The position numbers and the translations under genes are program-made. Below are positions 1 through 21,732 of a DNA stretch of 60,341 nt, piece after piece. The stretch comes from a virus. The number at the start of each line of letters is the position of its first letter. The stretch's first letter is position 1. The stretch lies in IMG/VR virus record IMGVR_UViG_3300045391_002463, one strand, 5' to 3'. Below the pieces are notes generated by a model. The model ran no database searches, had not been told where the DNA came from, and worked only from the letters and a program-made list of their open reading frames with translations.

Positions 1-69
1 CTCTGCCTGCGCAATGCCGGATGGCCCGATGACCGACCTGTTTGGACAGGATCTTGCCCCTGTGGACCC
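1..69. repeat. Terminal direct repeat, left copy (circular-assembly overlap or terminal redundancy)
   Basis: Bases 1-69 are identical to 60273-60341, compared base by base. Confidence 0.95.
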
Positions 70-754
70 TTCAGCGCCGCGGGCCTCCGCAAAGGCTTCG
101 ACGACCCGCGCCACCTTTGGCCGGAATGGTTTCGGCTCATCTGCGTCAGCCGGCCTCACAAGCTCTTTGGTGAGCAATCTGCGGACGCGGACACGTGGCT
201 CGATCTTGTATCGGCTGACATGGAAGGCGTCGGTTACGCCTTCGGGGCGGCTGATATTCCGGCTGCGGGCTTCGGAGGCGCCCACCGGCGACAGCGCTTT
301 GGCTTCGTGGCCGACGCCAACCACGCCGAGCGGTGGGCAGAGCGTGCCCCCTGGCACGACGGCCGGTGGCCGCAGACCGGACGGGTCGAAGGCCACGGTC
401 ACCCTGGAGAACATCGCCTGCCTGGCAGGATGGGCGACGCCGACGACCAGCGAGGGCACTGGAGCCAAGCGAGCGGACAACAAGCAGGGGGGCGAGAGCC
501 TGCGGACGCAGGCTCTCCTAGCGGGATGGCCGACGCCCATGGCGGGAAGCCCTGGAACGGACACCTACAACGAAGCCGGGAACACGGACTCATCTCGCAA
601 GACGGTGGCGTTGTTGATTGGCTCCTCTGCCGAGACGCCCGCTGGCGGCCGGTTGAACCCGGCACATGCCCGCTGGTTGATGCGAGTCCCGCCCGTCTGG
701 GACGCCTGCGCCTGTACGGCGATGCTATCGACGTCGAGGCGTTCACGAACCTGA
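14..754 (+). CDS. Alternative-frame ORF superimposed on the methyltransferase body
   Basis: 246-aa track ORF in frame 2 with three spaced GW(P/A)TP repeats and an RWLMRVPPVWD tail. Hand-counted third-position GC is higher than in frame 1 over 331-630. Confidence 0.3.
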   Translation: MPDGPMTDLFGQDLAPVDPSAPRASAKASTTRATFGRNGFGSSASAGLTSSLVSNLRTRTRGSILYRLTWKASVTPSGRLIFRLRASEAPTGDSALASWPTPTTPSGGQSVPPGTTAGGRRPDGSKATVTLENIACLAGWATPTTSEGTGAKRADNKQGGESLRTQALLAGWPTPMAGSPGTDTYNEAGNTDSSRKTVALLIGSSAETPAGGRLNPAHARWLMRVPPVWDACACTAMLSTSRRSRT

Positions 755-806
755 TCGGCGCCTACCTGGACGCCGAAGCCGAGCTCTCCAGTCAGTCGAG
801 GGCCGC

Positions 807-1091
807 ATGATCAGCCCCCACCCCACCCTTCAGGCAGCCGAGCGCACCTGCCCCGTCACCGACGGACCGTGCCGCGCCCAGGCCTGTGCCGACGTCCCCT
901 GCGGCCGTCCTGTGCAGACGATGGCCTTCGCACAGCTCCGCCAGTCGCTGAGCGGCTACACCGGGCGCATCCCCTTCAACCTCCCCGTCCGCCTGATCGT
1001 CAACGGCATCGCCCACCCGGTCGAGGCCGTGTGGTTCGAGCCCGGCCAGGACGGGACCGGGGCCATCTGCATCGGGAGCGACCCGCGATGA
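807..1091 (+). CDS. hypothetical protein
   Basis: 94-aa track ORF. Its ATG overlaps the upstream stop (ATGA) and its stop overlaps the next start. Confidence 0.5.
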   Translation: MISPHPTLQAAERTCPVTDGPCRAQACADVPCGRPVQTMAFAQLRQSLSGYTGRIPFNLPVRLIVNGIAHPVEAVWFEPGQDGTGAICIGSDPR

Positions 1092-1816
1092 AAGCCAGGC
1101 CCATCCTTTTCTCCGGCGCCATGGTCCGCGCCCTGCTCGCCGGGACGAAGACGCAGACTCGGCGCACGATCAAGTGGCCTCGCGGCGCGGCCAGCTGTGT
1201 CTGTCAGCCTCCCGCCTGGAGGTGCGATAACGGCTGGTACTGCGCGACCTGTGGTGGCGGGGTCCGGCTGACGGCTCGCGACGTGGCCAACACCGATTGC
1301 CCCTACGGCGTCCCCGGCGACCTGCTGGTGGTGCGCGAGACGTGGGCCTGCCACTACGCCACGAACGACCAGCGTCCGGCCGACATCGACCCCAACCTCT
1401 GGAGCGTCCGCTACGCAGCCGACGGTCACATCCGACCGGCCGCCTCCGACGGAAGCCGCGCTCTCCCGCAGCAATTCACGAAGACGCGCGTGTCCATCCA
1501 CATGCCCCGCTGGGCCTCCCGCCTGACGCTCGAGATCACGGAGGTTCGGGTCGAGCGGCTGCGAGAGATTTCGATCAGCGACGCCAAGGTCGAAGGGATC
1601 GTGCAATTGCGCGGTGCCGACAAGGACGGAATGCAGCACTGGGGCGTGCCGGGTCTGAACATCGACGCGCCGATGCCCGACACCGCCTACCTCAGGCTTT
1701 GGGCGCACATCAACGGCGACGGTGCGGCAGCCGCCAACCCCTGGGTCTGGGCCGTCTCCTTCAAGGTCCACCAGCAGAACGTCGACGCGCTGCTGAGCGA
1801 GCGGGTGGCGGCATGA
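1088..1816 (+). CDS. ASCH/PUA-like phage protein (tentative)
   Basis: Start placed at ATG 1088 inside track ORF 869..1816 (MKARPILFSGAMVRALLAGTKTQTRR, LLVVRETW). The pattern resembles ASCH-type phage proteins. Confidence 0.55.
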   Translation: MKARPILFSGAMVRALLAGTKTQTRRTIKWPRGAASCVCQPPAWRCDNGWYCATCGGGVRLTARDVANTDCPYGVPGDLLVVRETWACHYATNDQRPADIDPNLWSVRYAADGHIRPAASDGSRALPQQFTKTRVSIHMPRWASRLTLEITEVRVERLREISISDAKVEGIVQLRGADKDGMQHWGVPGLNIDAPMPDTAYLRLWAHINGDGAAAANPWVWAVSFKVHQQNVDALLSERVAA

Positions 1817-2229
1817 CCACGCCCGTCGCCATCCCCATCGACCTGCCCTGGCGCGAGGTGCCCGAATGGATCGGCAAGACGCCCGACTCCAAGGTCCCGA
1901 CCGCGGTCAAACTGCGGGTGTTCGCCCGCTGGGAAGGCCGCTGCCACCTCACGGGAGCGAAGATCCAGGTCGGAGACGACTGGGACGTTGAGCACGTCAA
2001 GCCGGTGCGAAGCGCGCTGCCTGGCCAGCCGCACCTGAACCGAGAGACCAACCTTCGCCCGGCCCTGCGCGAGCCACACCGGGAGAAGACCGCCCAAGAG
2101 AACAGCGACGGCGCCAAGGCCGATCGCATCCGGGCAAAGCATCTCGGCATCTGGCCGAAGTCCAAGACGCCGCTGAAGTCGCGCGGCTTCACGAAAACCC
2201 GCCAATTCCGCCCCGAGGAACAAGCATGA
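1813..2229 (+). CDS. HNH endonuclease
   Basis: Start at ATG 1813 (ATGA overlap) inside track ORF 1297..2229. GRCHLTG ... DVEHVKP ... NL ... HREKT matches the HNH core spacing. Confidence 0.7.
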   Translation: MTTPVAIPIDLPWREVPEWIGKTPDSKVPTAVKLRVFARWEGRCHLTGAKIQVGDDWDVEHVKPVRSALPGQPHLNRETNLRPALREPHREKTAQENSDGAKADRIRAKHLGIWPKSKTPLKSRGFTKTRQFRPEEQA

Positions 2230-3068
2230 GCACCCTGGATCTGGAGGGTTTGAAGGCGCTGTTGGAGACGTCTAGCGATCCAGAGTCGCGGGAAGCGGCC
2301 AGAACAGCGCTTGTGCGCGCAGCCCCCGCATTACTCGATCTAGCCTTCAACAACATCACCGCAGATGGCGGCTCTAAGATCGAACTGTGGGATTACTATA
2401 GTGCTTTCACTAGAGCATCCGGGTTTGATGGGATTACCGACTGCGTAACTCGTGCCCAAGCCACCGAGGAAAGAGCGCAGAGGGCGGAGGGGGAGAACGC
2501 GAGTCTAATTTCCGAGAACCGTGAACTTCGGCGCAAGGCGTTGCCGGTCGGTGGAACTGACCGAGGGGAGCGCCGAGCCGCAGCGAGCAAATTGCTTTGC
2601 GATATCTGCGCGTGCGCAGCCGAAGCGGACCCCGAAAGCATGAACCTACCGCATGTTGTGGAGGGGTGTGTCGCGCCTCTGGAGGTGCTGATCGCCGAAC
2701 GTGACGCGTGCCTCTATCTGCTGCAACAAGCACACAAGGTTCACGGCCGGGATGTGATCGACGCGATTGTCGAGAAAGCCGCTGCTGAGCGCCGCGCCCA
2801 AACCGCCGAAGCCGAGCGCGATGCGCTGAAGGAGGAGCGAGCATTCCTACTACTGGCCGAACAGCGGGCCATCCTCGCCCAACAAGATCTCCAAGCCAGG
2901 ATCAGGGAATTAGAGGCGGGGCTGGAGCGTATTGCTGACGGCTCGCTTTTCAATCAACTGCGATACGCCGAGGAAGACGACACTGACTACTTTCTCCGGT
3001 GCTACCGAATAGTTGCCGGGTATGCCCGCTCCCTCCTCCAACAACCCGTAGAAGGGGATAAGCCGTGA
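2226..3068 (+). CDS. hypothetical coiled-coil protein
   Basis: 280-aa track ORF in a visibly lower-GC segment, rich in heptad-like E/R/A/L stretches. Its stop overlaps the GTG start of tnpB (GTGA). Confidence 0.6.
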   Translation: MSTLDLEGLKALLETSSDPESREAARTALVRAAPALLDLAFNNITADGGSKIELWDYYSAFTRASGFDGITDCVTRAQATEERAQRAEGENASLISENRELRRKALPVGGTDRGERRAAASKLLCDICACAAEADPESMNLPHVVEGCVAPLEVLIAERDACLYLLQQAHKVHGRDVIDAIVEKAAAERRAQTAEAERDALKEERAFLLLAEQRAILAQQDLQARIRELEAGLERIADGSLFNQLRYAEEDDTDYFLRCYRIVAGYARSLLQQPVEGDKP

Positions 3069-4135
3069 TCAAGGCCTACAAGTACCGCGTCAAGGATCGG
3101 CGCGTCGCAAAGCGGCTGACGGCCCATGCTTACGCCTGCAACCAGGTGTGGAACTGGTGCGTAGCGCAGCATGAGGACACCCTGGCGCGCCACCGAGCCG
3201 GGGGCCCTAAGCGCAAATGGCTGTCTGCGTTCGATCTCGCCAAGCAGTGCGCGGGAGTGGGGAAGGATCTCGGCATTCATCAGCAGACCGTGCAATCGGT
3301 TTGCGATCAGTTCGCGACGAGCCGGGCGCATCGCCCCCATTTGCGGTTCCGTTCCAGCTTCGGCAAAAAGCGCGCCAGAGGATGGGTGCCGTTCCAGCGC
3401 CAAAGCCGCCGGATCACCGACGATGCTGTCACTTATCTCGGACAGACGTACCGAGTGTTTGGAGCCAAGCGGCGCCAGATTCCTGAGGCGGCCGGTGGCG
3501 GGTCCTTTGTCGAGGACGGTCGAGGACGCTGGTGGCTTGTCCTTCGCGTAGAAGCGCCAGACCCGATAGCGGCTAACGATGGCGCGGTCGGCATTGACCT
3601 TGGCCTAAAGGATTTCGCCGCCCTCTCGACCGGAGAGAAGATCGCCGCGCCGCGCTATTTCCGACAGCTTGAGGTCAAACTGGCCGCCGCCCAACGCGCT
3701 AGAAACAGACGCCGAGCGGCGGCGATCAGCGCCAAGATCGCCAATACCAGGCGCGACTTCCACCACAAGCTTTCTACCCGCCTCTCCCGCGATTACGCGT
3801 TCATCGCCGTGGGAGGCGTCAGCGCTAAAGCCTTGGCTCGTACTCGGATGGCAAAGTCCGTCCACGATGCCGGGTGGTCCACGTTCCGCCAGATGCTCCG
3901 GTACAAGTCGCCGGGCTATCGGGAAGTGGACGAGGCCTTCACGACCCAAACCTGTTCTTCGTGCGGCTCACTACCGCCGGAGAGGCCGCGAGGTATCGCA
4001 GGGCTTGGAATAAGGGAGTGGAGCTGTTCAGCCTGTGGGGAAACCCACGACCGCGACGTGAACGCGGCCCTGAACATCCTCGCTCTCGGGCGCAGTGCCG
4101 CGCCTCGTGCTGACGAAAGCCGGAGGGTCGCATGA
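3065..4135 (+). CDS. tnpB: TnpB-like protein (IS200/IS605 accessory family) lacking the canonical RuvC-II glutamate
   Basis: 356 aa. It has MIKAYKYRV, RuvC-I GIDLGLKDF, a zinc finger (CSSCG...CSACG) and RuvC-III HDRDVNAALNIL. At the RuvC-II position it reads FIAVGGVSAKAL, with no acidic residue. Confidence 0.85.
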   Translation: MIKAYKYRVKDRRVAKRLTAHAYACNQVWNWCVAQHEDTLARHRAGGPKRKWLSAFDLAKQCAGVGKDLGIHQQTVQSVCDQFATSRAHRPHLRFRSSFGKKRARGWVPFQRQSRRITDDAVTYLGQTYRVFGAKRRQIPEAAGGGSFVEDGRGRWWLVLRVEAPDPIAANDGAVGIDLGLKDFAALSTGEKIAAPRYFRQLEVKLAAAQRARNRRRAAAISAKIANTRRDFHHKLSTRLSRDYAFIAVGGVSAKALARTRMAKSVHDAGWSTFRQMLRYKSPGYREVDEAFTTQTCSSCGSLPPERPRGIAGLGIREWSCSACGETHDRDVNAALNILALGRSAAPRADESRRVA

Positions 4136-4545
4136 CCGGCCGGATAGGTACGACCAACACCACCAAGGATGGTCTCCCCTCCCCGCCAGACTTGAGAGAA
4201 CAGGTGGCGCGGACATGCTGCTACTGGGCCGATCCGGCCAAGAACGGAACCTGCCACGACGCTTACTGCTCGCATGAATGTCGCGCGGTCGAGCCTGAAA
4301 AGCAGTTCTTCGACATGGCCGACGCCATCCTCGCCCTCTTCACCCCTCCCGCCGGTCGGCTAGAGGTCGGAACCGACGCGCTGGATGCTCGGCGCTATCG
4401 TCGCCTTCGCGTCCTCGGGTGCGCGGTCATGGACACGCCACAACTCGACGCCGGCACGGTCGTTCGGTTCACCGGTTTGGACGAGATCATGGACCAGGAC
4501 TTGGAGCGATATCCCTCTCGCGGCGAGGCCAACCCCCATGCCTAA
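4132..4545 (+). CDS. hypothetical Cys/His-rich protein (start uncertain)
   Basis: 137-aa track ORF whose ATG overlaps the tnpB stop (ATGA). It contains CCYWADPAKNGTCHDAYCSHEC. Hand-counted GC3 is about 73% throughout. It overlaps the region where a TnpB guide RNA would be expected. Confidence 0.45.
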   Translation: MTGRIGTTNTTKDGLPSPPDLREQVARTCCYWADPAKNGTCHDAYCSHECRAVEPEKQFFDMADAILALFTPPAGRLEVGTDALDARRYRRLRVLGCAVMDTPQLDAGTVVRFTGLDEIMDQDLERYPSRGEANPHA

Positions 4546-5611
4546 CCTATTAGAAGAGGTATTGGAGCTGCTGGCCCAAGCCTACGAACAGGGTTGCTGC
4601 GACACGCACACGTCGATCCAGGCCGAACCGGAACTAGCCCTAATGCCCGTCGAGTCAGCCGAATTCGGCGAGGCAGCGCGCGACTATGCGCACCGCGCCC
4701 TCACCACCTACATCCGACAGTCCATAGAGGATAGGAGTGCCGAGCCGTCCTCGGATGCTTCCGATAGCGCATCCCCAGCCGCTGACGTTGTGGAGAAAAC
4801 CGCGCGCATCATTGGCGATAACTTCAGTCCGAACGTCACCTTCGACAAATCATCGGCAGCCACTCAGGCGGCCTGTCGTCGCGCCGCATGGGCACTTACG
4901 GGACTGAAGGTGGAGCACACGTTGTCCATGTCCGATGAGGAGATCATGGCCGAGCCCGGCGCTCGTGAGGCTGCGGAAGAGGTCGGCCGTGTGTTGGATC
5001 GCGCGCTGGCCATCCACGACATCGGCAAGGTGCGCGACAGACTCCAGGCGGCCTATGACGATGCAAACGGGGCACCCGGCTACCGCAACTTCTGCGGCCA
5101 CCTTGCCGAGCAACTGAGCGGCGCCCTTGCGCGGCTAGCGGCTGGGCAACCCCTCAACGGGCTGGCACGGGACGGCTCGGGAACCCAAAAAGACCCCGTC
5201 GCCCGCCATGTAGAGACGGAGGAGAGCCTGGACGAGGCTCTTGCAGAAACTGGCTGCCGCGACTTCGCCGACCTTACGGACATGGCCAGAGTCGGCAAAT
5301 CGCTCTTGGAGAGCATCGACGCCCTGGTCAAGCATCCCGGCCCGTTTCATGGCTGGATGCCGAACGATGACCCGGCGGAAATCGTCTTCGACCTCGTGAA
5401 CCACTACGAGGACGCCGCCCGACCCCAAGGCCATACGGAGGGCTGGCGGCTTGTGCCGGTAGAGCCGAGCGAAACCCTGATTGAAGCCATGGCTACGGCT
5501 TACGAGACCAGCCTGTGCATCGACCCGATGGGCTCCATGGAAGACGCCTACCGCGCCATGCTCGCCGGCGCTCCTGCTCCTCCTTCATCTACCGAGGAGC
5601 CGCGCTCATGA
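4538..5611 (+). CDS. hypothetical acidic protein
   Basis: Start placed at ATG 4538 (MPNLLEEVLELLAQ) inside track ORF 4385..5611. Its stop overlaps the start of the second tnpB (ATGA). Confidence 0.6.
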   Translation: MPNLLEEVLELLAQAYEQGCCDTHTSIQAEPELALMPVESAEFGEAARDYAHRALTTYIRQSIEDRSAEPSSDASDSASPAADVVEKTARIIGDNFSPNVTFDKSSAATQAACRRAAWALTGLKVEHTLSMSDEEIMAEPGAREAAEEVGRVLDRALAIHDIGKVRDRLQAAYDDANGAPGYRNFCGHLAEQLSGALARLAAGQPLNGLARDGSGTQKDPVARHVETEESLDEALAETGCRDFADLTDMARVGKSLLESIDALVKHPGPFHGWMPNDDPAEIVFDLVNHYEDAARPQGHTEGWRLVPVEPSETLIEAMATAYETSLCIDPMGSMEDAYRAMLAGAPAPPSSTEEPRS

Positions 5612-6888
5612 GCCTGTCGGAGGAGAATGCGGCGTCCGTGATGCGCAGCCAGACCGTTCGCCTTTACCCCACAGCGGCTCAGGCCGAACGGTTGAGCCAG
5701 TGGGCCGGCACGGTGCGGTTCGTCTACAATTTGGCGCTTGAGCAACGTAAGACGTTCTGGCGGCCGGGCAGGCATTTCAACTACGCCACTCAAAGCCGGG
5801 AAATCACAGAGCTGCGCGCCACTGTCGAATGGATCGCGGACGTGCCCCGCAGTCCGCTTAGCTACGCGCTGAGCGATCTCGACCAGGCTTATGCTAATTG
5901 GTGGGCCGGCCGCGCAGGCGCGCCGTCCTATAGAACTCGTAGGGAAAACGACTCATTCAGGCTGCAGGGCCGCGATTGCAGCTTGCGTCGTACGTCTCGG
6001 CGGTCTGGCCAACTGCGCATTCCAAAGCTGGGAGACATTCGCTTCAGGTGGACTGGGGCGACGCCAGCGACATGGGTGAATTGCACGATCTATCGCCGTG
6101 GGGGCGCATGGTTCGCGGCGGGGCCGCGCACAGTTGAGGCCAGGGCGCCCGCGTGCTCGCCGCAGATGGTCGGGGTTGACCGCGGCATACGAGCCTTTGC
6201 CGCTCTATCCTCTGGCGAGCTGGTTGTAGGGCCGAACCCCGGCCGGCGAGCAGCCAAAACGCTAGCGCGCGCGCAACGGAATTTGTCCCGCAAGCAGAAG
6301 GGGTCGCGCAACCGCGACAAGCAACGACGGCGTGTGGCGAAGCTGCATATGCGGCTGGCCGACGCCCGGAAGGACTTTCTCCACCGGATCAGCACGGCCA
6401 TCGCCCAGAACCACGGCACGGTCGTTCTTGAGGACTTGAAGGTGAAGAACATGACCAGGCGCGCGGTCGGTAAGGGGCGCGCCGCCAAATCTGGCCTCAA
6501 CCGATCCATTCTCGACCAGGGATGGGGCACCTTCCGCCAAATGCTGGCCTACAAGCTAGCGGAGCGCGGCGCCCGTCTGATCCTAGTTGCCGCCAACGAC
6601 ACGAGCCGCACCTGTGCTGCCTGTGGCGTGGTGGACGGGGACAGCCGAAAGGCCGAGCGGTTCAAGTGCACCGTCTGCGGCCATGAGGCCGACGCGGACA
6701 CGAATGCCGCGATCAATATTCTACGCCGGGGACGCGCCTCGGTTCTGCCTGTGGAGGCTTCGGCATGCGAGCCGGCCCATGAAGCAGGAACCAGTCGGAC
6801 GGCATCTCGCCTGTTCGTCAGCTCGGAAACGAGTGGATGCGGAGCTTCTATAGGGAAGGTCGCTTTCCCTGGGGGTGTTTCCAGATGA
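5608..6888 (+). CDS. tnpB: TnpB RNA-guided nuclease (IS200/IS605 OrfB family), catalytic triad present
   Basis: Start at ATG 5608 inside track ORF 5515..6888. It has VRLYPT, RuvC-I GVDRGIRAF, RuvC-II VVLEDLKVKNM, a zinc finger (CAACG...CTVCG) and RuvC-III ADADTNAAINIL. No tnpA is nearby. Confidence 0.9.
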   Translation: MSLSEENAASVMRSQTVRLYPTAAQAERLSQWAGTVRFVYNLALEQRKTFWRPGRHFNYATQSREITELRATVEWIADVPRSPLSYALSDLDQAYANWWAGRAGAPSYRTRRENDSFRLQGRDCSLRRTSRRSGQLRIPKLGDIRFRWTGATPATWVNCTIYRRGGAWFAAGPRTVEARAPACSPQMVGVDRGIRAFAALSSGELVVGPNPGRRAAKTLARAQRNLSRKQKGSRNRDKQRRRVAKLHMRLADARKDFLHRISTAIAQNHGTVVLEDLKVKNMTRRAVGKGRAAKSGLNRSILDQGWGTFRQMLAYKLAERGARLILVAANDTSRTCAACGVVDGDSRKAERFKCTVCGHEADADTNAAINILRRGRASVLPVEASACEPAHEAGTSRTASRLFVSSETSGCGASIGKVAFPGGVSR

Positions 6889-7304
6889 GCGCCGGACTTC
6901 GCGTATTGGTCTGCGGCGGTCGCGACTACGACAACTGGACGGCGTTCGCAGCCGAGATGGACATGCACGCCAAGCGCATGAACATCGGCCTAGTCGTGTC
7001 AGGCGGAGCGCGCGGAGCCGACACGATGGCCAAAGATTGGGCCCTCTCGCGCGGCATCCCCGTCGCTATCTTTCCTGCCAACTGGACGAAGCACGGCAAA
7101 GCCGCCGGCCCGATCCGAAATCAGTCCATGATCGACTTCATGCGTCCGGATGTGGTGATCGCCTTCGCTGGCGGTCGCGGGACGGCTGACATGATCCAAC
7201 GGGCCATCAACGCCGACGTGACGGTGATCCAGTGCATGACTATCCGGTTGACGCCCACAGATACCAATGGTAGTGTTTCCTTCATTGGGGCAGTCGTCCC
7301 TTAG
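6885..7304 (+). CDS. DUF2493 / SLOG-family (YspA-like) protein with an IS-derived C-terminal extension
   Basis: Start at ATG 6885 (ATGA with the tnpB stop). VLVCGGRDY ... VVSGGARGADTMA ... AFAGGRGTADM is the DUF2493 pattern. The last 23 codons lie inside the IS that starts at 7235. Confidence 0.75.
   Translation: MSAGLRVLVCGGRDYDNWTAFAAEMDMHAKRMNIGLVVSGGARGADTMAKDWALSRGIPVAIFPANWTKHGKAAGPIRNQSMIDFMRPDVVIAFAGGRGTADMIQRAINADVTVIQCMTIRLTPTDTNGSVSFIGAVVP
7227..7234. repeat. Target-site duplication ATCCAGTG, left copy
   Basis: The identical 8-mer is found at 8884-8891, immediately outside the inverted repeats. Confidence 0.85.
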
Positions 7305-7319
7305 CTGATGGAGGTTTTG

Positions 7320-7454
7320 ATGAGCGCCCAGGTCATTCAGTTCAGGCAGCGCGAACCGAAGGAGATGGTTCTCCCGGTAGAAAAGCCGTGCCCTGGTCCC
7401 GGCTGGCGTCTTCAAGACGGCAACAACTGGTTCAATAAGTGGGTGAGGTCTTAG
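7320..7454 (+). CDS. small hypothetical protein (IS passenger)
   Basis: 44-aa ORF not in the track (under 60 aa). TGGAGG lies 5 nt upstream of ATG 7320, and its TAG is followed directly by the next ATG. Confidence 0.45.
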   Translation: MSAQVIQFRQREPKEMVLPVEKPCPGPGWRLQDGNNWFNKWVRS

Positions 7455-7658
7455 ATGCCGACCCTCAATCTCACCAAAGCCGAGGCCTTCGCCTTGCAAC
7501 AGATGGTCACTCTTGAAATCGGTTCGGGCGCGGTGGCCGATGGGATCGCAATGGGCGTCGTGCCCAAGTTCGACGCCGATAAGCTCAGGGCGAAGGTCAA
7601 CTACATCTGCCCGTTCAGGTGGGAAATTGAGCACCTGTTTTCCGAAGAGGGAGCCTGA
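7455..7658 (+). CDS. hypothetical protein (IS passenger)
   Basis: 67-aa track ORF, contiguous with its neighbours. Confidence 0.5.
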   Translation: MPTLNLTKAEAFALQQMVTLEIGSGAVADGIAMGVVPKFDADKLRAKVNYICPFRWEIEHLFSEEGA

Positions 7659-7661
7659 GCC

Positions 7662-7868
7662 ATGGGCCGCCCGACGATGCGCCAATTGCGAAGCTGGCAT
7701 CGCAGGCTGACGACGGCGCACGCGAAAGCGGTTGCCGTGAGCCGGGAGGCTCAAGCCATTCTTCCCGACGATGGCAGCGAATTGACGATCATCATGGACC
7801 CGATCGTCGAGTTGCACGCCGCCCTGTGCTGCATCGAAGGGTTCATTGAAGAGCGGGAGGGCCGGTAG
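7662..7868 (+). CDS. hypothetical protein (IS passenger)
   Basis: 68-aa track ORF. Its TAG is followed immediately by the transposase ATG. Confidence 0.5.
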   Translation: MGRPTMRQLRSWHRRLTTAHAKAVAVSREAQAILPDDGSELTIIMDPIVELHAALCCIEGFIEEREGR

Positions 7869-8867
7869 ATGGCCGACCTTCCCTTCCCGCGCTCGCTGCC
7901 CGAGTTCCAGAAGCTGTTCCCCGATGACGCGGCGTGCGCGGCCTATCTGGAGGCGGCCAAGTGGCGCGAAGGGTTCGTCTGCGCCCACTGCGGAACCGCT
8001 GGCGAGCCCTTCCGCTTCGAGGCGCGGCCCGGTGTGCTGCGTTGCCGGAAATGCCGAAAAGACAATCGCTTGACCGCCGGAACGGTCATGGAGGGCACAC
8101 ACACGCCGCTCAATGTTTGGTTCTGGGCGGCCTACCTCGTTAGCAGCCAGACGCCCGGCATGAGCGCGGTCCAATTCCAGCGCCAGCTTGGGCTCAGCCG
8201 CTACGAAACCGCCTTCCAAATCCTTCACAAGCTGCGCGCCGCGATGGTGCGCCCGGACTCGGATCGGATCGGCCAGATTGAAGATCACGTCGAGGTCGAT
8301 GAGGCCTGGATCGGCGGCAAGACGCGCGGCGAAGGCCGGGGCGTCCATGACCAAACCCTGATCGCCTGCGCCGTCGAAGTCCGCCAGCGCGACCCGGCCT
8401 CGCCGCTCAACAAGCGCAAGGGTGGCAGGATCGCTGGGCGCATCCGTCTGTCCGTTGTCGATGACCGCACCGCCAAGTCGCTCTGTGGCTTCGTGGAAGC
8501 CGCCGTGAACCCGAGCACGATGGTCGTGACAGACGGGTGGAACGGCTACGCCAGCCTCGCCAAGCGGGGCTATGAGCACCTGTCCTGCGCCGAGAACGAT
8601 GACCCCCAGGTCGCCGAGGACTACCTGCCCATGGTCCACATGGTCTTCTCGAACCTGAAGACCTGGCTCAAGGGCACGCACCATGGCGTGAGCCCCCAGC
8701 ACCTTCAGGCCTACCTCAACGAGTTCACCTTCCGCTTCAACCGCCGCCACTACCCGTTCAACAGCTTCCGCTCGTTGCTCGGGCTCGCTGGCGGCAACGA
8801 GGCTCCCACCTATGCCAGCCTGTATTCGGGCGATTGGCACCATCCTAAATGTGGTGGTCATGGGTGA
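7869..8867 (+). CDS. IS1595-family (ISXO2-like) DDE transposase
   Basis: 332 aa. It has an N-terminal zinc ribbon (CAHCG...CRKCR), then DEAWIGG, VVTDGWNGY and YLNEFTFRFNRR, typical of IS1595 transposases. Confidence 0.85.
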   Translation: MADLPFPRSLPEFQKLFPDDAACAAYLEAAKWREGFVCAHCGTAGEPFRFEARPGVLRCRKCRKDNRLTAGTVMEGTHTPLNVWFWAAYLVSSQTPGMSAVQFQRQLGLSRYETAFQILHKLRAAMVRPDSDRIGQIEDHVEVDEAWIGGKTRGEGRGVHDQTLIACAVEVRQRDPASPLNKRKGGRIAGRIRLSVVDDRTAKSLCGFVEAAVNPSTMVVTDGWNGYASLAKRGYEHLSCAENDDPQVAEDYLPMVHMVFSNLKTWLKGTHHGVSPQHLQAYLNEFTFRFNRRHYPFNSFRSLLGLAGGNEAPTYASLYSGDWHHPKCGGHG

Positions 8868-8883
8868 AAACCGGATAGGCATG

Positions 8884-8891
8884 ATCCAGTG
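8884..8891. repeat. Target-site duplication ATCCAGTG, right copy
   Basis: Identical to 7227-7234. It supplies the GTG start of xis. Confidence 0.85.
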
Positions 8892-9146
8892 AACGCCCCG
8901 CGCCTGCTCACCGAGCGCGCCGCTGCCGAATACCTGTCCATCCCGGTCGCCGGGGTGCGCAGGATAGCGGCTGGCCGCGTGGTGCTCGATGGGCGGGTGC
9001 GCTGGGATCGGCTGGCGCTGGACGAGTGGCTTGACGCCATGCGCGGGCGTGCCCCAACGTCGGCCGCCAACCAGAACCAGACCAAGGCCGATGCCGCGCT
9101 CGCCGAGTGGCTTGCAGACCAGACGAATGCTGCCCGGAGTTCATAA
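8889..9146 (+). CDS. xis: excisionase / AlpA-type HTH protein
   Basis: 85 aa with a GTG start. LLTERAAAEYLSIPVAGVRRIAAG is an HTH, and the gene lies directly upstream of and overlapping int. Confidence 0.65.
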   Translation: MNAPRLLTERAAAEYLSIPVAGVRRIAAGRVVLDGRVRWDRLALDEWLDAMRGRAPTSAANQNQTKADAALAEWLADQTNAARSS

Positions 9147-10188
9147 GGTCCGGGTGAGGCTGGCCACGGGGCGCGCCGAGTATTGGTACGCCTGGCGGGG
9201 CGGTCCGCGCATCCTCGCGTGCAAGGCCAAGACCGCTGAGGATCTGGCGCGGATGGTGGATGCTGCGGCGCCCGCAGCCATCGCGCAGTTCAAGGTGCTG
9301 GTACAGCCGCCTTCGGCCGATGCCTTCGTTTCCGGCCTGATCACGAAGTTCCTGGACAGCCCAGCGTATTTGGGGCTCGGCGCCACGCGGCGATCCGACC
9401 TATCCCGTTATCTGGACGCGGCGCGGACCGGTGTAGGCACAATGCCCTTAGAGGCCCTGGCGTCGGCAGGGACGCGCAAGGTCCTGCTCGACTGGCGGGA
9501 CAAGTTCAAGGCCACGCCATGCACGGCCGACAACCGTCTCGGCGCCCTCGCGCAAGTGCTCGCCTGGGCGAAGAAGGACGGACTGATCACGGTCAACCCG
9601 CTGGAGGAATGGCCCCGCATCTACAAGGTCGACCGCGCCGACATCATCTGGACGAAGCCCGACCTGATCCGGTTGCTCACCGGGGCCGATGCCGATTTCC
9701 GGAGAGCTGTCCTGCTGGCGGCCTTCACGGGCCTTCGCCTCGGTGATCTGGTCAAGGTGACCTGGGCCAACGTTGGCAAGGACGCGATCACGCTGGCCAC
9801 ATCCAAGAGCAACGGCAAGCGGGTGGTCGTGATCCCGATCACGCCAAAGACCAGGGCCATCCTCAAGCAGATCGGGCGCAAGGATGTCGGGACGGTGCTC
9901 ACCCACTCGCGCGGCAAGCCCTGGACCGGCTGGGGCCTGCAGACGGCCATGCAGCGGGCGAAGAACCGGCCGGGCCAAGACATCGAGGGCCTGCGCTTCC
10001 ATGACCTGCGGGGCACAGCCGCCACCCACTTCATCCGGGCCGGTCTGCCCATGGCCGATGTCGCGACCATAATGGGATGGGCGCCGGCTCAGGTGGAGGC
10101 GATTGCCCGGCGCTACGTCACGTCGGAAGCGGTTGCAGCGGGCATGTTGGAGCGGCTAAGGAAGAACAAAGGCGGGGCGCGTTTGTAA
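9127..10188 (+). CDS. int: tyrosine integrase
   Basis: Start at ATG 9127 inside track ORF 8989..10188. It has LLAAFTGLRLGDL (Arg), HDLRGTAATH (HxxR) and a C-terminal RRYV (Tyr). attP lies immediately downstream. Confidence 0.9.
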   Translation: MLPGVHKVRVRLATGRAEYWYAWRGGPRILACKAKTAEDLARMVDAAAPAAIAQFKVLVQPPSADAFVSGLITKFLDSPAYLGLGATRRSDLSRYLDAARTGVGTMPLEALASAGTRKVLLDWRDKFKATPCTADNRLGALAQVLAWAKKDGLITVNPLEEWPRIYKVDRADIIWTKPDLIRLLTGADADFRRAVLLAAFTGLRLGDLVKVTWANVGKDAITLATSKSNGKRVVVIPITPKTRAILKQIGRKDVGTVLTHSRGKPWTGWGLQTAMQRAKNRPGQDIEGLRFHDLRGTAATHFIRAGLPMADVATIMGWAPAQVEAIARRYVTSEAVAAGMLERLRKNKGGARL

Positions 10189-10383
10189 AATGGGTCAGAC
10201 CATTTGTAAAACGCCAGCCGCCACACTGGAAAAGCCCAAGCTTTTCAACTGGTCCCGTAGCTCAGCCGGATAGAGCAGGGCTTTCCTAAAGCGACGGTTA
10301 TTCAATGAAATCAAAGGCTGTGCTGTAAAAGATCGGCGGATGTTCACGCTTTGCCCTTTACGGGCAGGCGAGAATTGTAAAAC
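10182..10383 (+). other. attP region: tRNA-derived core flanked by four direct TGTAAAA arm-type repeats
   Basis: TTTGTAAAA at 10182-10190, TTTGTAAAAC at 10203-10212, CTGTAAAAG at 10323-10331 and TTGTAAAAC at 10375-10383. Two repeats lie on each side of the core at 10251-10292. The segment is AT-rich and sits next to int. Confidence 0.7.
10251..10292 (+). other. 5' half of a tRNA-Arg(CCT) gene (attP core), not a complete tRNA
   Basis: GGTCCCG TA GCTC AGCCGGATA GAGC A GGGCT TTCCTAA AGC gives the acceptor 5' strand, D arm, anticodon stem 5' strand and a loop with CCT. Similarity to a tRNA ends at 10292 and no T arm follows. Confidence 0.75.
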
Positions 10384-10391
10384 GTCGGAGC

Positions 10392-10631
10392 ATGGCTCTC
10401 CTGACCTTGGGCTACCTCTTAACCGAAGATCCCAACCGCTCCATCCGCTTCACCTGCCGCAACCCCCGCTGCCGGAACCGGCTGGCCGTGGACAAGCCGC
10501 TAGGCGAGATGGTCGTCGCGTTCGGCGAGACCCGGACCCTCAAGTCCCTCAAGGGCCGGTGCAAATGGTGCGACCGATCCGATCTGGTCGAGGTGAGCGT
10601 CTGGCGGAACACCTGGAGTGGGCCGAAGTGA
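10392..10631 (+). CDS. small zinc-ribbon-like protein
   Basis: 79-aa track ORF with CRNPRC and CKWC pairs. It would be the first gene inside the prophage left end. Confidence 0.45.
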   Translation: MALLTLGYLLTEDPNRSIRFTCRNPRCRNRLAVDKPLGEMVVAFGETRTLKSLKGRCKWCDRSDLVEVSVWRNTWSGPK

Positions 10632-10632
10632 G

Positions 10633-10896
10633 CTAGGCCAGGCTCGGCTCGAAGTCGCTGTCGATCTCGACGGGTTCGGGCTCGAGGTCCGGATCGCCGT
10701 CGAGCCTGTCGAGCTTGGCGATGGCGCGCTCGATGCGCGCCTCGGCCCGGACCCGCCGTTCGGCCCGGCTCAGGCGTCTGATCGGCGCCCCCTCCTCCCG
10801 CAACCCCAACGCAACCGCCAGCGACGCCTGCAACGGCCCCTCAGGCCTCCAAACCTCCGCGATATGACGGAGATTAAGCGCTTCTCCCATGTCCAC
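10633..10896 (-). CDS. hypothetical protein
   Basis: 87-aa track ORF with an acidic C-terminus. Confidence 0.45.
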   Translation of the reverse strand: MDMGEALNLRHIAEVWRPEGPLQASLAVALGLREEGAPIRRLSRAERRVRAEARIERAIAKLDRLDGDPDLEPEPVEIDSDFEPSLA

Positions 10897-10956
10897 GTCC
10901 CCCGACGCCTTGGCCCTATCGCTACACGCATCAGGCGAGTGGTCAAGGTTGTTGGG

Positions 10957-11241
10957 TCACTTCGGGAGGCGATCCTTGAACACCTCCAGTTGATCAGCGA
11001 GCTGACGGGTCCAGGCCGCGGCCTGGCGGCTGCCGGCGATCTCGTCTTCCGCCTCGTGAAGTGGCCGGCCGAAGTCAAGCGGCCAGCCCTTCACCGGCCC
11101 GGAGAACACGTCGGCGACCCAGTGCAAGACCTTGATCATCTGGTCCCGGTCCGTCGGGGCCTGCAACAGGAACCAGGCCAAGGCGAGCAGCTTGACGACG
11201 GATAGGGCGGCGGTGGGCGGCGGTAATCTGGCTTCGGACAT
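10957..11241 (-). CDS. hypothetical membrane-anchored protein
   Basis: 94-aa track ORF with an N-terminal hydrophobic stretch (VVKLLALAWFLL). Confidence 0.45.
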   Translation of the reverse strand: MSEARLPPPTAALSVVKLLALAWFLLQAPTDRDQMIKVLHWVADVFSGPVKGWPLDFGRPLHEAEDEIAGSRQAAAWTRQLADQLEVFKDRLPK

Positions 11242-11406
11242 TGGGCGAACTCCCTACGCGACTGGAGCCCTCCCCTTCACAGCGCGCGATGAACGCTTCC
11301 TAAGCGGGAGCGCTGCAAGAAAACGCTCACCGGTTCTCCAAGTGACTTGTACGATAAGGAAACCGCCATAGACGGAGGGCTTTCGGGTGCGTTACCGCCC
11401 TAGGCC

Positions 11407-11661
11407 ATGGATCAGCTTCACCCGTGGCAGCGGCGTGTGAGGGAGGTCGGCTTGACGCAAGCCCGCCTCGCCCGCCTGCTCGGAGTGAGCGAGAACGCCG
11501 TATCCGAGGCCCTGCGCGGCAAGTACGGCGACGTCCCCGATTACCTGATCGCCACCATCGAAGCCTGGGGCATCATGACGCCTGAGCAGCAGCAGCGCCT
11601 CGAGGCGCGGATGGCGGCGATCCGCGCTGGCCAAGGGCCCGAGGCGACCGACAAGCCCTGA
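11407..11661 (+). CDS. HTH DNA-binding protein
   Basis: 84-aa track ORF. GLTQARLARLLGVSENAVSEALRG is an HTH motif. Confidence 0.6.
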   Translation: MDQLHPWQRRVREVGLTQARLARLLGVSENAVSEALRGKYGDVPDYLIATIEAWGIMTPEQQQRLEARMAAIRAGQGPEATDKP

Positions 11662-11664
11662 ACG

Positions 11665-11703
11665 CAAAAAGGCCCCCGCCAGCCCTTTCGGACCAGCGGG
11701 GGC
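11665..11703 (-). terminator. rho-independent terminator at the end of the late/lysis operon
   Basis: 8-bp stem GCCCCCGC (11672-11679) / GCGGGGGC (11696-11703). The A5 run at 11666-11670 is a T-run after the hairpin on the minus strand. Confidence 0.65.
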
Positions 11704-11783
11704 GCGAGGTGCGGCGCGGGAGGGAACGGCGCCGGAGGGGGTTCTGCCAGGAGCGGCGGCTCAACCGGCTGAGGTCGTCCGCA

Positions 11784-11936
11784 TCATCTCTGTTCGTCGG
11801 GGCGATCGGGCGGATCGGCCTCAGCCTCGTAGGCCTCCACGACCTTCATGAGGTCGCCCCAGACCAGCGAGCCTGGATACCAGCCGATGGACTCGGCGGC
11901 GCGCTGCAGGCGTTCACGGTCGATCTTGTGGCTCAT
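11784..11936 (-). CDS. small hypothetical protein
   Basis: 50-aa ORF not in the track (MSHKIDRERLQRAAESIGWYPG...). GGAGG lies upstream and there is an ATGA overlap with the preceding ORF. Confidence 0.45.
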   Translation of the reverse strand: MSHKIDRERLQRAAESIGWYPGSLVWGDLMKVVEAYEAEADPPDRPDEQR

Positions 11937-12055
11937 CGGGACCTCCATGGATCAGGAGCAGCCGGCGGCTTCGCCATGTTCCAGAACGAGGCCGCCAGCC
12001 AGTACAGGAGCCCGACCGCTGTTCCGGTCAGGATCAGGGTCGGGATGAGGGGCAT
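11933..12055 (-). CDS. small single-pass membrane peptide
   Basis: 40-aa ORF not in the track (MPLIPTLILTGTAVGLLYWLAASFW...). Confidence 0.4.
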   Translation of the reverse strand: MPLIPTLILTGTAVGLLYWLAASFWNMAKPPAAPDPWRSR

Positions 12056-12058
12056 GGG

Positions 12059-12361
12059 TCAGGCGGCGGCTTGCACGGCGTGGATGAACACGCCGGCCTG
12101 GTTGTAGAGCGCCACCAGGGCGCTGACGAAGGCCGAGATCGCGGCCATCACCAGATGCATCGGCGCGGCCAGACCGGGGATCACGCTGTTGACGAACACC
12201 TCGGCGGCGTTGAGCACGGCAGTCAGCTTGTCCGGCCCGGTCAGGCTCTTGTTCTCCACCGCCACGACGGTCGAGGAGATGAAGGCCAGCACGGCGGGAA
12301 CGTCCTTTTCGGCTTCGGCCAGGACGGTGGCGAGGGTCGCAGCAGCAGCGGCGAGGTTCAT
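12059..12361 (-). CDS. hydrophobic membrane protein (holin-like or moron)
   Basis: 100-aa track ORF with several hydrophobic segments. Confidence 0.45.
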   Translation of the reverse strand: MNLAAAAATLATVLAEAEKDVPAVLAFISSTVVAVENKSLTGPDKLTAVLNAAEVFVNSVIPGLAAPMHLVMAAISAFVSALVALYNQAGVFIHAVQAAA

Positions 12362-12440
12362 GGGGGATGTTCCTTGGCCTCGGAGGTGACGGCCGCCGGC
12401 GCGAGGCCGGGCGTGGGCGGCTATTCGGGGGCGGAAACGG

Positions 12441-12471
12441 CAACGGCCGCTCGGGTGAGGAGCGGCCGTTG
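12441..12471 (-). terminator. strong intra-operon hairpin (terminator or attenuator)
   Basis: Perfect 12-bp stem CAACGGCCGCTC / GAGCGGCCGTTG with a 7-nt loop. It is followed on the minus strand by CCGTTTCC. Confidence 0.45.
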
Positions 12472-12511
12472 CAGAGACCTCAGTCGAGGTCGTCGATGGG
12501 CGGATCGTAGG

Positions 12512-12706
12512 TCATTCGCTTCGCCCTATGCGCGACGGGAGGAACCGAGGCCGCGCAAGTTCTTCCGGGTCCGGGTCTTTCGCCAGATACTCGCGGAAAT
12601 CGGCCAGAAGACCGTCCAGGCGGGGCTTGGCTTGGCAGTTGCACCGATCATCGCCGCAATAGGCGAGGCAGTACTTTTCGACGACAGACGCGGGCGCGAG
12701 GCTCAT
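12512..12706 (-). CDS. small Cys-rich protein
   Basis: 64-aa track ORF containing YCLAYCGDDRCNC. Confidence 0.45.
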   Translation of the reverse strand: MSLAPASVVEKYCLAYCGDDRCNCQAKPRLDGLLADFREYLAKDPDPEELARPRFLPSRIGRSE

Positions 12707-13260
12707 TGGACCTCCTGCGGAGCGGGGGTGAAGTCGACGTAGTAGGCGCGGCCGCGCTCCAGAGCCGCCAAGACGCCCTCATTGCGGACGTGCGTGGTCA
12801 GGTCGAAGCTCGGCGTGTATTGGCCGAAGATGAGGTTTTCCTCGGCGCCGTTCGGATCGCACGTGGGCGGACAGACCGCGCCGAACCGAAGGCGCTCGCC
12901 GTCCATGACATAGTTGGCGGGGTCAGCCGGATCGACCCAAGTATAGTCGCGGTCCTGATAGTTCTTGCGGACCTCGGTGTTGCCCTTGGCTTTCGTCCAG
13001 TCAGCGAGGCTGACGGCTTGCTCTCGGCCGTGGAGCACGACCTTGCAGCGCATGACCTTGCCGGGCAGTGCGCCCTCGTAGGGGATGAACACGGCATTCG
13101 CGCCGTTCTCGCGCTCGGCGAAGGCCAACGCCGCGGCCGCGCCAGCTGCCAACTCGACGGCCTTGAACTCGCCCACCTCCTTGGTGGACGTGTCGTCGTG
13201 GGCCGTGACGATATAGCGGGTCACCGCGCGGACGCGGTATTCGACGTTGCGTTCAGACAT
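12703..13260 (-). CDS. hypothetical protein
   Basis: Start at ATG 13260 (AAGGAA upstream) inside track ORF 12703..13365. Confidence 0.55.
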   Translation of the reverse strand: MSERNVEYRVRAVTRYIVTAHDDTSTKEVGEFKAVELAAGAAAALAFAERENGANAVFIPYEGALPGKVMRCKVVLHGREQAVSLADWTKAKGNTEVRKNYQDRDYTWVDPADPANYVMDGERLRFGAVCPPTCDPNGAEENLIFGQYTPSFDLTTHVRNEGVLAALERGRAYYVDFTPAPQEVQ

Positions 13261-13343
13261 GGGAGTTCCTTTCGACGGCCGCAGCCGCCTATCTGCCGAC
13301 CGATGGCCGTCGGCTCGCCATCGGCGGCAGGTTCGCCACAGAT

Positions 13344-13664
13344 TCAGTGAGGGGTTGAGCACCAATCGCGGGCGTCAGAAGCCCGTCGCCAGCCGTCGCG
13401 GGCGTACACCGCCAGCGAGTGCAGGAACTGCCCGTACAGCGCCACGGCGGCGCTCGCGGCGGCATCCTGGGGCGCGGGGAAGCCTGCGCCGGCCGGGAGG
13501 GTCGGAAACGGCGGAGTGTCGGCCAGGAGGCTCCCGGGGCAGACGGGCTTGGCCGAGGCCTGGGGCGGCGCTGGGGCGGGTTTCGGGCCGCCGAGGCTGA
13601 TCAGGCTCATGTGCCCGCAGCCGGCCAGCAGGAGGGCGGCCAGGGCGATGACGAGGGCGCGCAT
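13344..13664 (-). CDS. outer-membrane lipoprotein, o-spanin-like
   Basis: 106 aa. MRALVIALAALLLAGC is a signal peptide with a lipobox, and the gene sits downstream of the endolysin. Confidence 0.55.
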   Translation of the reverse strand: MRALVIALAALLLAGCGHMSLISLGGPKPAPAPPQASAKPVCPGSLLADTPPFPTLPAGAGFPAPQDAAASAAVALYGQFLHSLAVYARDGWRRASDARDWCSTPH

Positions 13665-13668
13665 CTGG

Positions 13669-13761
13669 CTAATCCCCCTTCGCCACGATCAGCACCGCGC
13701 ACACCAAGCAGGCGGTGAGCACGTCGACGAATATCCAGCCGAGGATGTGGACGACGATCAT
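13669..13761 (-). CDS. tiny transmembrane peptide
   Basis: 30-aa ORF (MIVVHILGWIFVDVLTACLVCAVLIVAKGD) with an ATGA overlap to the upstream stop. Confidence 0.35.
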   Translation of the reverse strand: MIVVHILGWIFVDVLTACLVCAVLIVAKGD

Positions 13762-14090
13762 TGCATGATGGCCCTGATCTGGTCGGCCGTGATTAGCGGT
13801 TGCGGCTGGCCGGCGGCGGCCGGCACGGGCCGGCTCGCGGCGGCAACGGCGGCGGCAGATCGGCCGGCGGCGGCGATCTCAGCACTGCAGCTCTGTTGCT
13901 GGCGGTTCGCCGCGGTCGTGTCCGCCGCCAGCGCTCCAGCTTGGGCATGAGCCGTGACCTTGGCCGCCTCCCCCGCCTGGATGGCCGACCACGCGTGCGC
14001 CCAGATGATCGGACCGCCGAAGTACGCGCCCGCGCCGATCACGGCGACCCAGGCGAGCCCGATGATCAGATGCTCGAGGAACTTGCCCAC
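13758..14090 (-). CDS. N-terminally anchored periplasmic protein, i-spanin-like
   Basis: GTG start at 14090 with GGAGG upstream. A TM segment (LIIGLAWVAVIGAGAYF) is followed by an Ala/Gln-rich region. It lies inside track ORF 13758..14318. Confidence 0.45.
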   Translation of the reverse strand: MGKFLEHLIIGLAWVAVIGAGAYFGGPIIWAHAWSAIQAGEAAKVTAHAQAGALAADTTAANRQQQSCSAEIAAAGRSAAAVAAASRPVPAAAGQPQPLITADQIRAIMQ

Positions 14091-14091
14091 G

Positions 14092-14673: not shown

Positions 14674-14685
14674 GGCTGGATGTCC

Positions 14686-15885: not shown

Positions 15886-16250
15886 CAGTTAGCTCCGCTC
15901 GCTGGACTGCGGGGCCTGCGCACCCCCAGTTGCGACCGGAGCTGGTGCTGCTCCGTCTTGATGTCCCGAAGCTGGTCTTGGATGTGGCTGTCGCGCTCGC
16001 CGAACCTTTCGGCGAGGTTCTTCAGGCCGTCCGCGAACTTCTCACCCATGTGCTCGATCGCTTGGGCCAGGGCGGGCATCTGACGCGCCTCGTCTTGCAA
16101 GCGCTCGATGCGCGTTTCGGCCTTTTCCAATCGCGCCTCATGGCCCCTGACCATCTGGCGAACCATGCCCCAGGTGACGAGCAAACCAGCCCCGCCGAGC
16201 GCCGCGCTTCCTGCCACGGCGACCAGAATGTCCTGCAGCAGCTTGTCCAT
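15885..16250 (-). CDS. membrane-anchored coiled-coil protein
   Basis: 121-aa track ORF with an N-terminal TM segment and then heptad-like repeats. Confidence 0.5.
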   Translation of the reverse strand: MDKLLQDILVAVAGSAALGGAGLLVTWGMVRQMVRGHEARLEKAETRIERLQDEARQMPALAQAIEHMGEKFADGLKNLAERFGERDSHIQDQLRDIKTEQHQLRSQLGVRRPRSPASGAN

Positions 16251-16522: not shown

Positions 16523-16575
16523 GGGAACCTCTTCGATGATGCGGGGCGCTCTGGCGGCGCTACTTAAATCGTGGG

Positions 16576-21729: not shown

Positions 21730-21732
21730 CGG

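Follow-up and report, generated by a model that had tools for sequence, protein, structure and literature searches.

Two open frames at one locus

The window analysed here is the whole of IMG/VR virus record IMGVR_UViG_3300045391_002463, a stretch of 60,341 nucleotides (nt), and our subject is a putative cytosine DNA methyltransferase gene within it that is open in two frames of the same strand. The record is circularly closed by a 69-nt terminal direct repeat, so the methyltransferase gene crosses the junction and features near either end are read across it. We refer to the outer open reading frame (ORF), in frame 1 of the window, as α, and to the ORF in the +1 frame (frame 2 of the window) as β. 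α has 328 codons (60096..810 across the junction). Frame 2 is free of stops over 309 codons, from 60097 to a TGA at 752-754, which lies 56 nt before the stop of α. The earliest ATG in this frame is at 14-16 and the next at 29-31; the product from the earliest would be 246 amino acids long. Table 1 gives the features of both ORFs.

The original prediction, made from the letters alone, had described both frames as open (frame 1 over 1-810, frame 2 from 60097 to 754), which is correct, and had offered three explanations: an overprinted second gene, a methylase needing two compensating frameshifts, or a compositionally odd linker with a chance shadow ORF. The circle is 66.6% G+C, and about 13 same-strand frame pairs of this genome are co-open for at least 600 nt. 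Since co-open frames are not rare here, the case has to rest on comparative evidence.

Table 1. Features of the methyltransferase locus in the window
Feature	Position	Strand	Basis
Terminal direct repeat	1..69 (= 60273-60341)	.	Sequence identity
α gene, 5′ part (C5 cytosine methyltransferase)	60096..60341	+	phrog_363 match; ORF reading
α gene, remainder	1..810	+	PF00145, hhalign, Foldseek
α motif I, FFAGGG	60246-60263	+	Sequence reading
In-frame TAG in α	60270-60272	+	Codon is Ser in 156/157 family members, TCG in the relative L165
α motif IV, SCPCGPFSAAG	52-84	+	Sequence reading
α motif VI, FGEQS	166-180	+	Sequence reading
α motif VIII, AHRRQRFGFVA	280-312	+	Sequence reading
α central stretch (residues 183-262), low-complexity, predicted disordered, unconstrained in frame 1	370..609	+	Predicted local distance difference test (pLDDT); substitution counts
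α motif X block RLGRLRLYGDAI, with YGDAI at 715-729	694-729	+	Sequence reading
β, nested +1-frame ORF	14..754 (frame open from 60097)	+	ORF reading; database and PHROG matches
β helix and beta-hairpin block SSLVSNLRTRTR GSILYRLTWKASVTPSGRLIFRLRAS, dual-coded with α motifs VI-VIII	161..274	+	pLDDT 72-89, entropy, comparison with L165
β, three W(P/A)TP modules	305-325, 428-448, 524-544 (within 305..544)	+	Entropy pattern
β C-terminal block GGRLNPAHARWLMRVPPVWD, motif IX-like, dual-coded with α WRPVEPGTCPLVDASPARLG	644..703	+	Lowest entropy in both frames

α looks like a catalytic chain with a disordered centre

α matches the PHROG family phrog_363 ("DNA methyltransferase") end to end (E 4.8e-58, residues 2-326). 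Against Pfam PF00145, a search that the original prediction had proposed for both frames, it scores 39.6 bits (cutoff 22) over residues 74-169 only, i.e. motifs IV-VIII; frame 2 has no Pfam match. M.HhaI is found by sequence at E 1e-11, and hhalign aligns α to M.HhaI/M.HaeIII with a probability of 96.9% over motifs IV-VIII. Where a C5 methyltransferase is expected to have motifs I FxGxG, IV PCQ (with the nucleophilic Cys), VI ENV, VIII QxRxR and X GNA, α of the window reads FFAGGG, PCG (the Cys kept, Gln changed to Gly), GEQ, RRQRF and GDA (Asn changed to Asp).

In the AlphaFold2 model of α, residues 1-175 have pLDDT values of 85-97, residues 183-262 values of 28-41 and residues 300-328 values of about 80-88, and Foldseek matches the folded part to the catalytic domains of M.HhaI, M.HaeIII and DNMT1 with a probability of 1.00. 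Between motifs VIII and X of the same chain we found no target-recognition domain or motif IX, and the profile matches end at motif VIII. As modelled, α thus looks like a large catalytic domain that is tied to the motif X helix by a disordered linker, at the usual place of the recognition domain and motif IX. This disordered centre coincides exactly with the stretch in which β is the constrained frame, as described below.

Canonical PCQ and GNA are present in most other family members; the PCG and GDA of the window could mean altered cofactor or substrate chemistry, and a cytosine C5-carboxymethyltransferase (8yf3) is found, not specifically, among the structural matches to α. In Erythrobacter phage R6L (L004), about 42 residues are inserted into α directly ahead of motif VIII, and β lacks the first WPTP region; an unrelated minus-strand coding sequence (CDS) is annotated over its locus.

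β is a widespread protein, and its frame stays open in relatives

Frame 2 encodes a product that gene callers have often picked: β matches 2,143 proteins in the protein database (best E 1.6e-128). Among cluster representatives at 50% identity, its profile matches 20,678, and 8,287 of these reach E <= 1e-30. The more than 20,000 β clusters of the family extend from phages of Firmicutes to phages of Proteobacteria. Among the PHROGs it matches phrog_1008 (E 3e-24) and phrog_31772 (E 1.1e-22), both labelled "DNA methyltransferase". A tblastn search of phage genomes with frame 1 gave matches in 344 records and with frame 2 in 209, at the same loci, the frame-2 matches falling in the +1 frame of the annotated methyltransferase. 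Both frames are open in Edwardsiella phage eiAU, Bordetella PHB09, Aeromonas AeroV_348 and Erythrobacter R6L, whose +1 frames have the strongly conserved blocks GSTLYxLTWK and LRASxRRTSD, the GWPTP repeats and a further block of 25 residues.

The three W(P/A)TP motifs of the window are present where the original prediction had placed them, with a spacing of 41 and 32 codons that is only roughly the even one it described. The W-P-T-P modules number from 1 to 6 among relatives (Xanthomonas FoX4, L171; K1ind2, L166; the window; L175). The length of the disordered centre of α tracks this module count. The original prediction had also pointed to RLNPAHARWLMRVPPVWD, within 644-703, as a motif IX-like segment just upstream of the frame-1 YGDAI (within 694-729), and it does lie there. 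The motif order across the two frames is thereby canonical, with motifs I-VIII on α, the WPTP modules and the IX-like block on β, and motif X on α again.

Viral contigs and bacterial prophages supplied another 160 homologous loci, giving 163 usable loci of 53-69% G+C. In these loci about 90% of the gene is open in the +1 frame: they have a median of 3 stops in this frame, all within the first 60-115 nt, against a mean of 15 stops in the +2 frame. When synonymous codons were shuffled with the α protein and its codon usage fixed, 3.16 +1-frame stops were expected between nt 150 and 60 nt before the gene end, and 145 of 160 genes have none; the +2-frame control gave 11.8 stops observed and 10.1 expected. 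The β stop usually precedes the α stop by 14-35 nt, so β is fully nested, and the nested layout, on the same strand and in another frame, holds in all 163 loci.

Openness in relatives of lower G+C content, a check suggested with the original prediction, gave the same answer. The outer gene of Paenibacillus phage Diva is 47% G+C and has 21 stops in its +2 frame, yet no stop interrupts its +1 frame between nt 175 and 886, and the +1 product matches the hidden Markov model (HMM) of β at E 7e-24, with LTWK, three WxTP blocks and GQLNPDWVECLMGFPIGWTD in common. Klebsiella phage SBP (48% G+C), Xanthomonas FoX4 and Burkholderia vB_CB2a likewise keep both frames. Sampling from the β side finds β proteins nested in intact α frames; in one such case, a 419-amino-acid β with six modules, α is open over a low-complexity centre of about 240 codons.

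Selection changes frame along the gene

Entropy by codon position, computed on an α codon alignment of 155 sequences, changes in steps along the gene. At α codons 0-104 the third-position entropy is 1.0-1.7 and α alone is constrained. At codons 105-147 it is 0.76-0.91, equal to that of the first positions, and at codons 255-294 it is 0.47-0.62, both frames being constrained in each of these stretches. After the β stop it is 1.25, and again α alone is constrained. In the WPTP blocks, aligned on β, the +1 codon positions have entropies of 1.13/0.95/1.6, an ordinary coding pattern, and α is much less conserved there than β (amino-acid entropy 2.7 vs 1.85).

Substitutions between close relatives were counted both for the window against its closest relative, L165 (87% identical), and for 15 independent close pairs, each sequence being used once (Table 2). 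Judged by entropy and substitutions together, purifying selection is exerted on α at the 5′ end, on both frames over motifs VI-VIII, on β in the centre, on both near the 3′ end, and on α alone after the β stop.

Table 2. Substitutions between close relatives, classified in both frames (S, synonymous; N, non-synonymous)
Comparison	Region	Differences	α	β
Window vs L165	α codons 1-105	41	27 S	36 N
Window vs L165	α codons 106-165	12	10 N	10 S
Window vs L165	α codons 166-260 (centre)	22	3 S/19 N	18 S/4 N
Window vs L165	After β stop	10	7 S	9 N
15 pairs	5′ end	116/63/318 at α positions 1/2/3	307 S/190 N	107 S/390 N
15 pairs	Centre	414/270/214 at α positions 1/2/3	178 S/720 N	382 S/516 N
15 pairs	After β stop	6/8/45 at α positions 1/2/3	38 S/21 N	6 S/53 N

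The switch of codon bias within the methyltransferase that the original prediction reported is real and reflects a switch of the frame under selection; it is a second gene's footprint. The G+C contents by codon phase on which that observation was based (frame-1 positions 1/2/3) were right within a few percent: we obtain G+C at the third position in 50/58 codons of 60096-60269, 70/57/67 for 1-300, 80/59/67 for 331-630, and 67/54/92 for the recT control. For 721-780 we obtain 70/35/85, where the original prediction had 30 as the middle value.

Two chains are kept, and β appears to have its own start

The α ORF is also kept open. It is unbroken in one frame from PCQ to GNA in 144/154 genes, a sample made up of the best α matches. 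In synonymous shuffles with β fixed, about 3.1 frame-0 stops are expected in the α centre, and only 4% of shuffles have zero. Between motifs I and VI, where the amino-acid sequence of β is not conserved, the +1 frame has no stop in 143/152 genes (shuffle probability 0.27 per gene). An Asp codon near α codon 37 that makes a +1 ATG is GAT in 117/132 genes, compared with 39% GAT overall. These results fit a separately initiated β and speak against a frameshift fusion. On these sequence patterns both ORFs are maintained by selection, and β appears to start on an ATG of its own, as a separate polypeptide. That β is a real, selected coding gene seems to us almost certain.

The overprinted second gene of the original prediction is thus supported: the +1 ORF shows conservation at the protein level and is open in every homologue examined, including those of low G+C content. 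The original prediction had named, as evidence that would speak against such a gene, a frame 2 interrupted in most homologues and without conservation of its own, and the opposite is found. Its odd linker is half right, in that the centre of frame 1 is an unconstrained, disordered linker while the ORF that overlies it is not there by chance.

A proposed two-chain enzyme

M.EcoHK31I, described by Lee, Kam & Shaw in 1995, is a two-polypeptide C5 methyltransferase whose β gene lies wholly inside the α gene in a different frame (PMC2836561, PMC3404938). Its α chain has motifs I-VIII as well as X, and its β chain, which has internal initiation codons, was assigned motif IX and is required for activity (PMC2836561, PMC3404938). 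C5 methyltransferases also tolerate a split that separates motif VIII from the recognition domain (PMC3404938). Given the canonical motif order across the frames and this precedent, β most likely supplies the recognition domain in trans.

We propose that α is a phage orphan C5 cytosine DNA methyltransferase with the core motifs I, IV, VI and VIII and the motif X helix. β would be translated from its own start codon within the α gene, α and β would assemble into one two-chain methyltransferase, and β would bring the small DNA-recognition domain in trans, as in the M.EcoHK31I model. We infer that β is translated, binds α and would set target recognition. The proposal as a whole, a two-chain methyltransferase in which β is a selected nested gene that supplies the recognition domain, is in our judgement probable.

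Several observations weigh against it. The homology tests of β mostly came out empty: it has no match in Pfam or NCBIfam, neither of which holds a model for it; a sequence search of the PDB returned only a spurious match to a Toxin A repeat (E 0.37); and the structure model, which has a mean pLDDT of 58.6 and is of low confidence (its best-predicted parts, at pLDDT 72-89, are a helix at residues 43-59 and a hairpin at residues 66-88), gave no Foldseek match at E <= 1e-3. For direct comparisons we used the sequences of M.HhaI and M.HaeIII, verified against the PDB, and Dcm from the K-12 genome. hhalign of β against M.HhaI plus M.HaeIII and against Dcm gave a probability of 0.1%, and with the β HMM in hmmsearch the real enzymes scored no better than 900 shuffled decoys. 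A position-specific scoring matrix (PSSM) of the IX-like block ranked the true motif IX 1/310 in M.HhaI and 2/455 in Dcm and missed it in M.HaeIII, all scores being weak, and one of the WPTP blocks found no canonical recognition elements. The likeness to M.EcoHK31I itself (a nested same-strand β in another frame, with motif X on α) is a likeness of published descriptions.

Other points against the proposal concern the sample and the window's own copy. The loci gathered from the α side are the best α matches, and this sampling favours an intact α. The window's clade is without the ATG usual for β in the family, and no evident Shine-Dalgarno sequence precedes the window ATGs at 14 and 29. This whole clade (including P0122, P0123 and L174), which is under purifying selection, also has PCG and GDA. 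Lastly, α of the window has an in-frame TAG at a position where the family has Ser (Table 1).

This TAG, which the original prediction did not mention, ends one base before the 69-nt repeat. The 328-amino-acid database protein P0121 is identical to α but for a Ser at the TAG position. Reassignment of the codon was considered and rejected, because TAG is an ordinary stop in this genome, where it ends 8 of 38 strongly coding ORFs. The TAG is a nonsense allele of recent origin or else an artefact, produced by the contig end or by a variant bubble; since it adjoins the terminal repeat, it may be such an artefact rather than a real nonsense mutation.

The C-terminal block of β resembles RKLHPRECARVMGYPDSY of M.HhaI in pattern only, and neither hhalign nor hmmsearch gave anything significant for it. 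Ten long β relatives have no extra Pfam domain, hence no in-frame fusion to a methyltransferase core was found among them. A likeness of WPTPTARDWKDG to TLSARYYKDG of Dcm was dropped as evidence because the WPTP-block PSSM had missed the canonical recognition elements.

Alternatives to a two-chain methyltransferase

A selected β need not be a methyltransferase subunit. It might be a regulator of α, an anti-restriction protein or a DNA-binding protein that shares the locus by overprinting: the dual-coding results support a functional β without telling its role, and β is without profile or structural similarity to methyltransferase domains. Against such a role, α has no conserved or folded segment at the place of the recognition domain and motif IX, and α alone therefore looks incomplete. 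The constrained part of β sits exactly over this gap, with its IX-like block immediately before motif X in the canonical order; the PSSM of that block picks the true motif IX in M.HhaI and nearly does so in Dcm; and in the sole characterised nested case the β chain is an essential subunit. We regard a β with a role outside the enzyme as unlikely. Programmed frameshifting, in which a single polypeptide would be read in frame 1 to motif VIII, in the +1 frame through the recognition and IX-like region and, after a -1 shift, in frame 1 again for motif X, would account for a motif order that is canonical when read across the frames. It needs two efficient shifts in opposite directions, however, and its product has no need of the open frame 1 that is kept through the unconstrained centre. 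In the 150-250 nt upstream of the conserved part, the +1 frame is also kept free of stops, with its ATG maintained by the biased Asp codon, and β is also constrained over α motifs VI-VIII, which a fusion would read in frame 1. We hold frameshifting to be very improbable, although slippery sites were not looked for. The two compensating frameshifts of the original prediction go the same way, frame 1 being a continuous ORF in 160+ independent loci and the +1 frame being open, with a selected ATG, far upstream of the conserved part.

The remaining alternative is that frame 2 is open by chance, as a shadow ORF of GC-rich DNA, or that the locus reflects gene decay or indel errors in the assembly. 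The roughly 13 co-open pairs of this genome would suit chance, and the TAG in α would suit decay. Yet the ORF is retained in every one of the 163 loci and in the 47% G+C gene of Diva, the shuffle tests reject chance, most substitutions in the centre are synonymous when read in frame 2, and thousands of independent assemblies have both frames intact. These explanations are hardly credible, and the comparative data have refuted them already.

Neighbouring genes and other co-open frames

The α start codon, ATG at 60096, shares bases with the upstream gene's TGA (TGATG, 60094-60098), and its stop, TGA at 808-810, overlaps the ATG of the next gene (ATGA, 807-810). Because both ends of α overlap its neighbours in this way, the arrangement suggests translational coupling within an early-gene operon. 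The order of genes is YqaJ-like and RecT-like genes, a gene of 227 amino acids, the methyltransferase and then small ORFs. Elsewhere in the genome, further frame pairs with overlaps of 600-1,200 nt are co-open on the + strand at about 53741-55446 and at several places on the - strand (e.g. reverse-strand indices 35568-39927); these other co-open pairs are probably for the most part GC-driven shadow ORFs.

Annotation of the two chains

Nested CDS pairs of this kind have already been recorded as ORF29/ORF28 of K1ind2 and as gp49/gp50 of Paenibacillus phage Diva, where the inner one is called "g49 internal gene". Gene callers otherwise annotate α or β and rarely both. β alone is annotated in Salmonella W5, vB_CB2a and FoX4, and α alone in the PGAP-annotated plasmid matches (H96-H109). 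Where only the inner ORF is labelled (records among L170, L171, L168 and L004), it appears as "DNA methyltransferase", "putative metabolic enzyme", "Mte8-like" or "cytosine-specific methyltransferase"; the nested CDS of fTaEco01 is a "putative Mte8-like protein", "Mte8" being an annotation label only. The PHROGs place the two products in separate families (phrog_363 vs phrog_1008 and phrog_31772), all labelled DNA methyltransferase. A literature search of incomplete coverage found no functional or evolutionary analysis of the phage nested pair as dual-coding.

Significance

Bacteria and phages rarely have long overlapping genes on the same strand, and reported cases are usually contested, since one genome by itself does not distinguish them from chance ORFs. 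The present locus has a clear evolutionary signature and thousands of natural replicates over a wide range of G+C content, which make it a good model for two proteins that share one DNA sequence. They share it by turns, each protein being constrained where the other is a disordered passenger. In practical terms, α expressed alone for the mapping of phage methylation motifs may give an inactive or mis-specified enzyme. If β does set specificity, its variable number of modules would be a compact means of retuning protective methylation against host restriction.

More broadly, and as a tentative view that we hold to be less likely than not, the phage and prophage family of phrog_363 might consist of obligate two-chain enzymes in which the 1-6 tandem WPTP modules of β are exchangeable recognition units that set or multiply the targets. 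It might then also be the largest and longest (700-1,200 nt) same-strand nested-gene family known in prokaryotic viruses, one largely missed by domain libraries and annotation pipelines.

Comparison with known systems

M.AquI, a two-subunit C5 methyltransferase, is split in the variable region, its larger subunit having motifs I-VIII and its smaller one IX-X (PMC3404938). A natural split in the variable region and the assembly of two chains are points of likeness with our proposal. The motif X of M.AquI is on the small subunit, whereas in the window family it (YGDAI in the window) is on α and β is nested in the α gene; with motif X on α and β fully nested, we rejected a split of the M.AquI type. 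The locus also does not belong with programmed-frameshift genes, the +1 frame being open with a selected ATG far upstream and frame 0 being open through the unconstrained centre.

Multispecific phage C5 methyltransferases have tandem recognition domains (PMC12707154). Like them, the window gene would be a phage-borne, orphan and protective enzyme with variable tandem modules in its recognition region. Those enzymes are single polypeptides, however, and the WPTP modules have no detected similarity to canonical recognition domains; that they act as recognition domains is speculation.

The nearest system in layout is M.EcoHK31I, from which the window family differs in several respects. M.EcoHK31I is part of a Type II restriction-modification system (YGGCCR); the window gene, by contrast, is a phage orphan beside recombination genes, and the plasmid matches are phage-plasmids with no restriction gene under the match. 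The recognition domain of M.EcoHK31I has been assigned to its α chain, whereas in the window family the α centre is predicted to be disordered and is unconstrained, the constraint lying in β. No relative named EcoHK31I is found among the β matches, including those of a search with an enterobacterial β. The window family further differs in having thousands of members and WPTP modules that vary in number. An arrangement of this kind is known from M.EcoHK31I, and it is the scale and the conservation of the phage family that are of interest.

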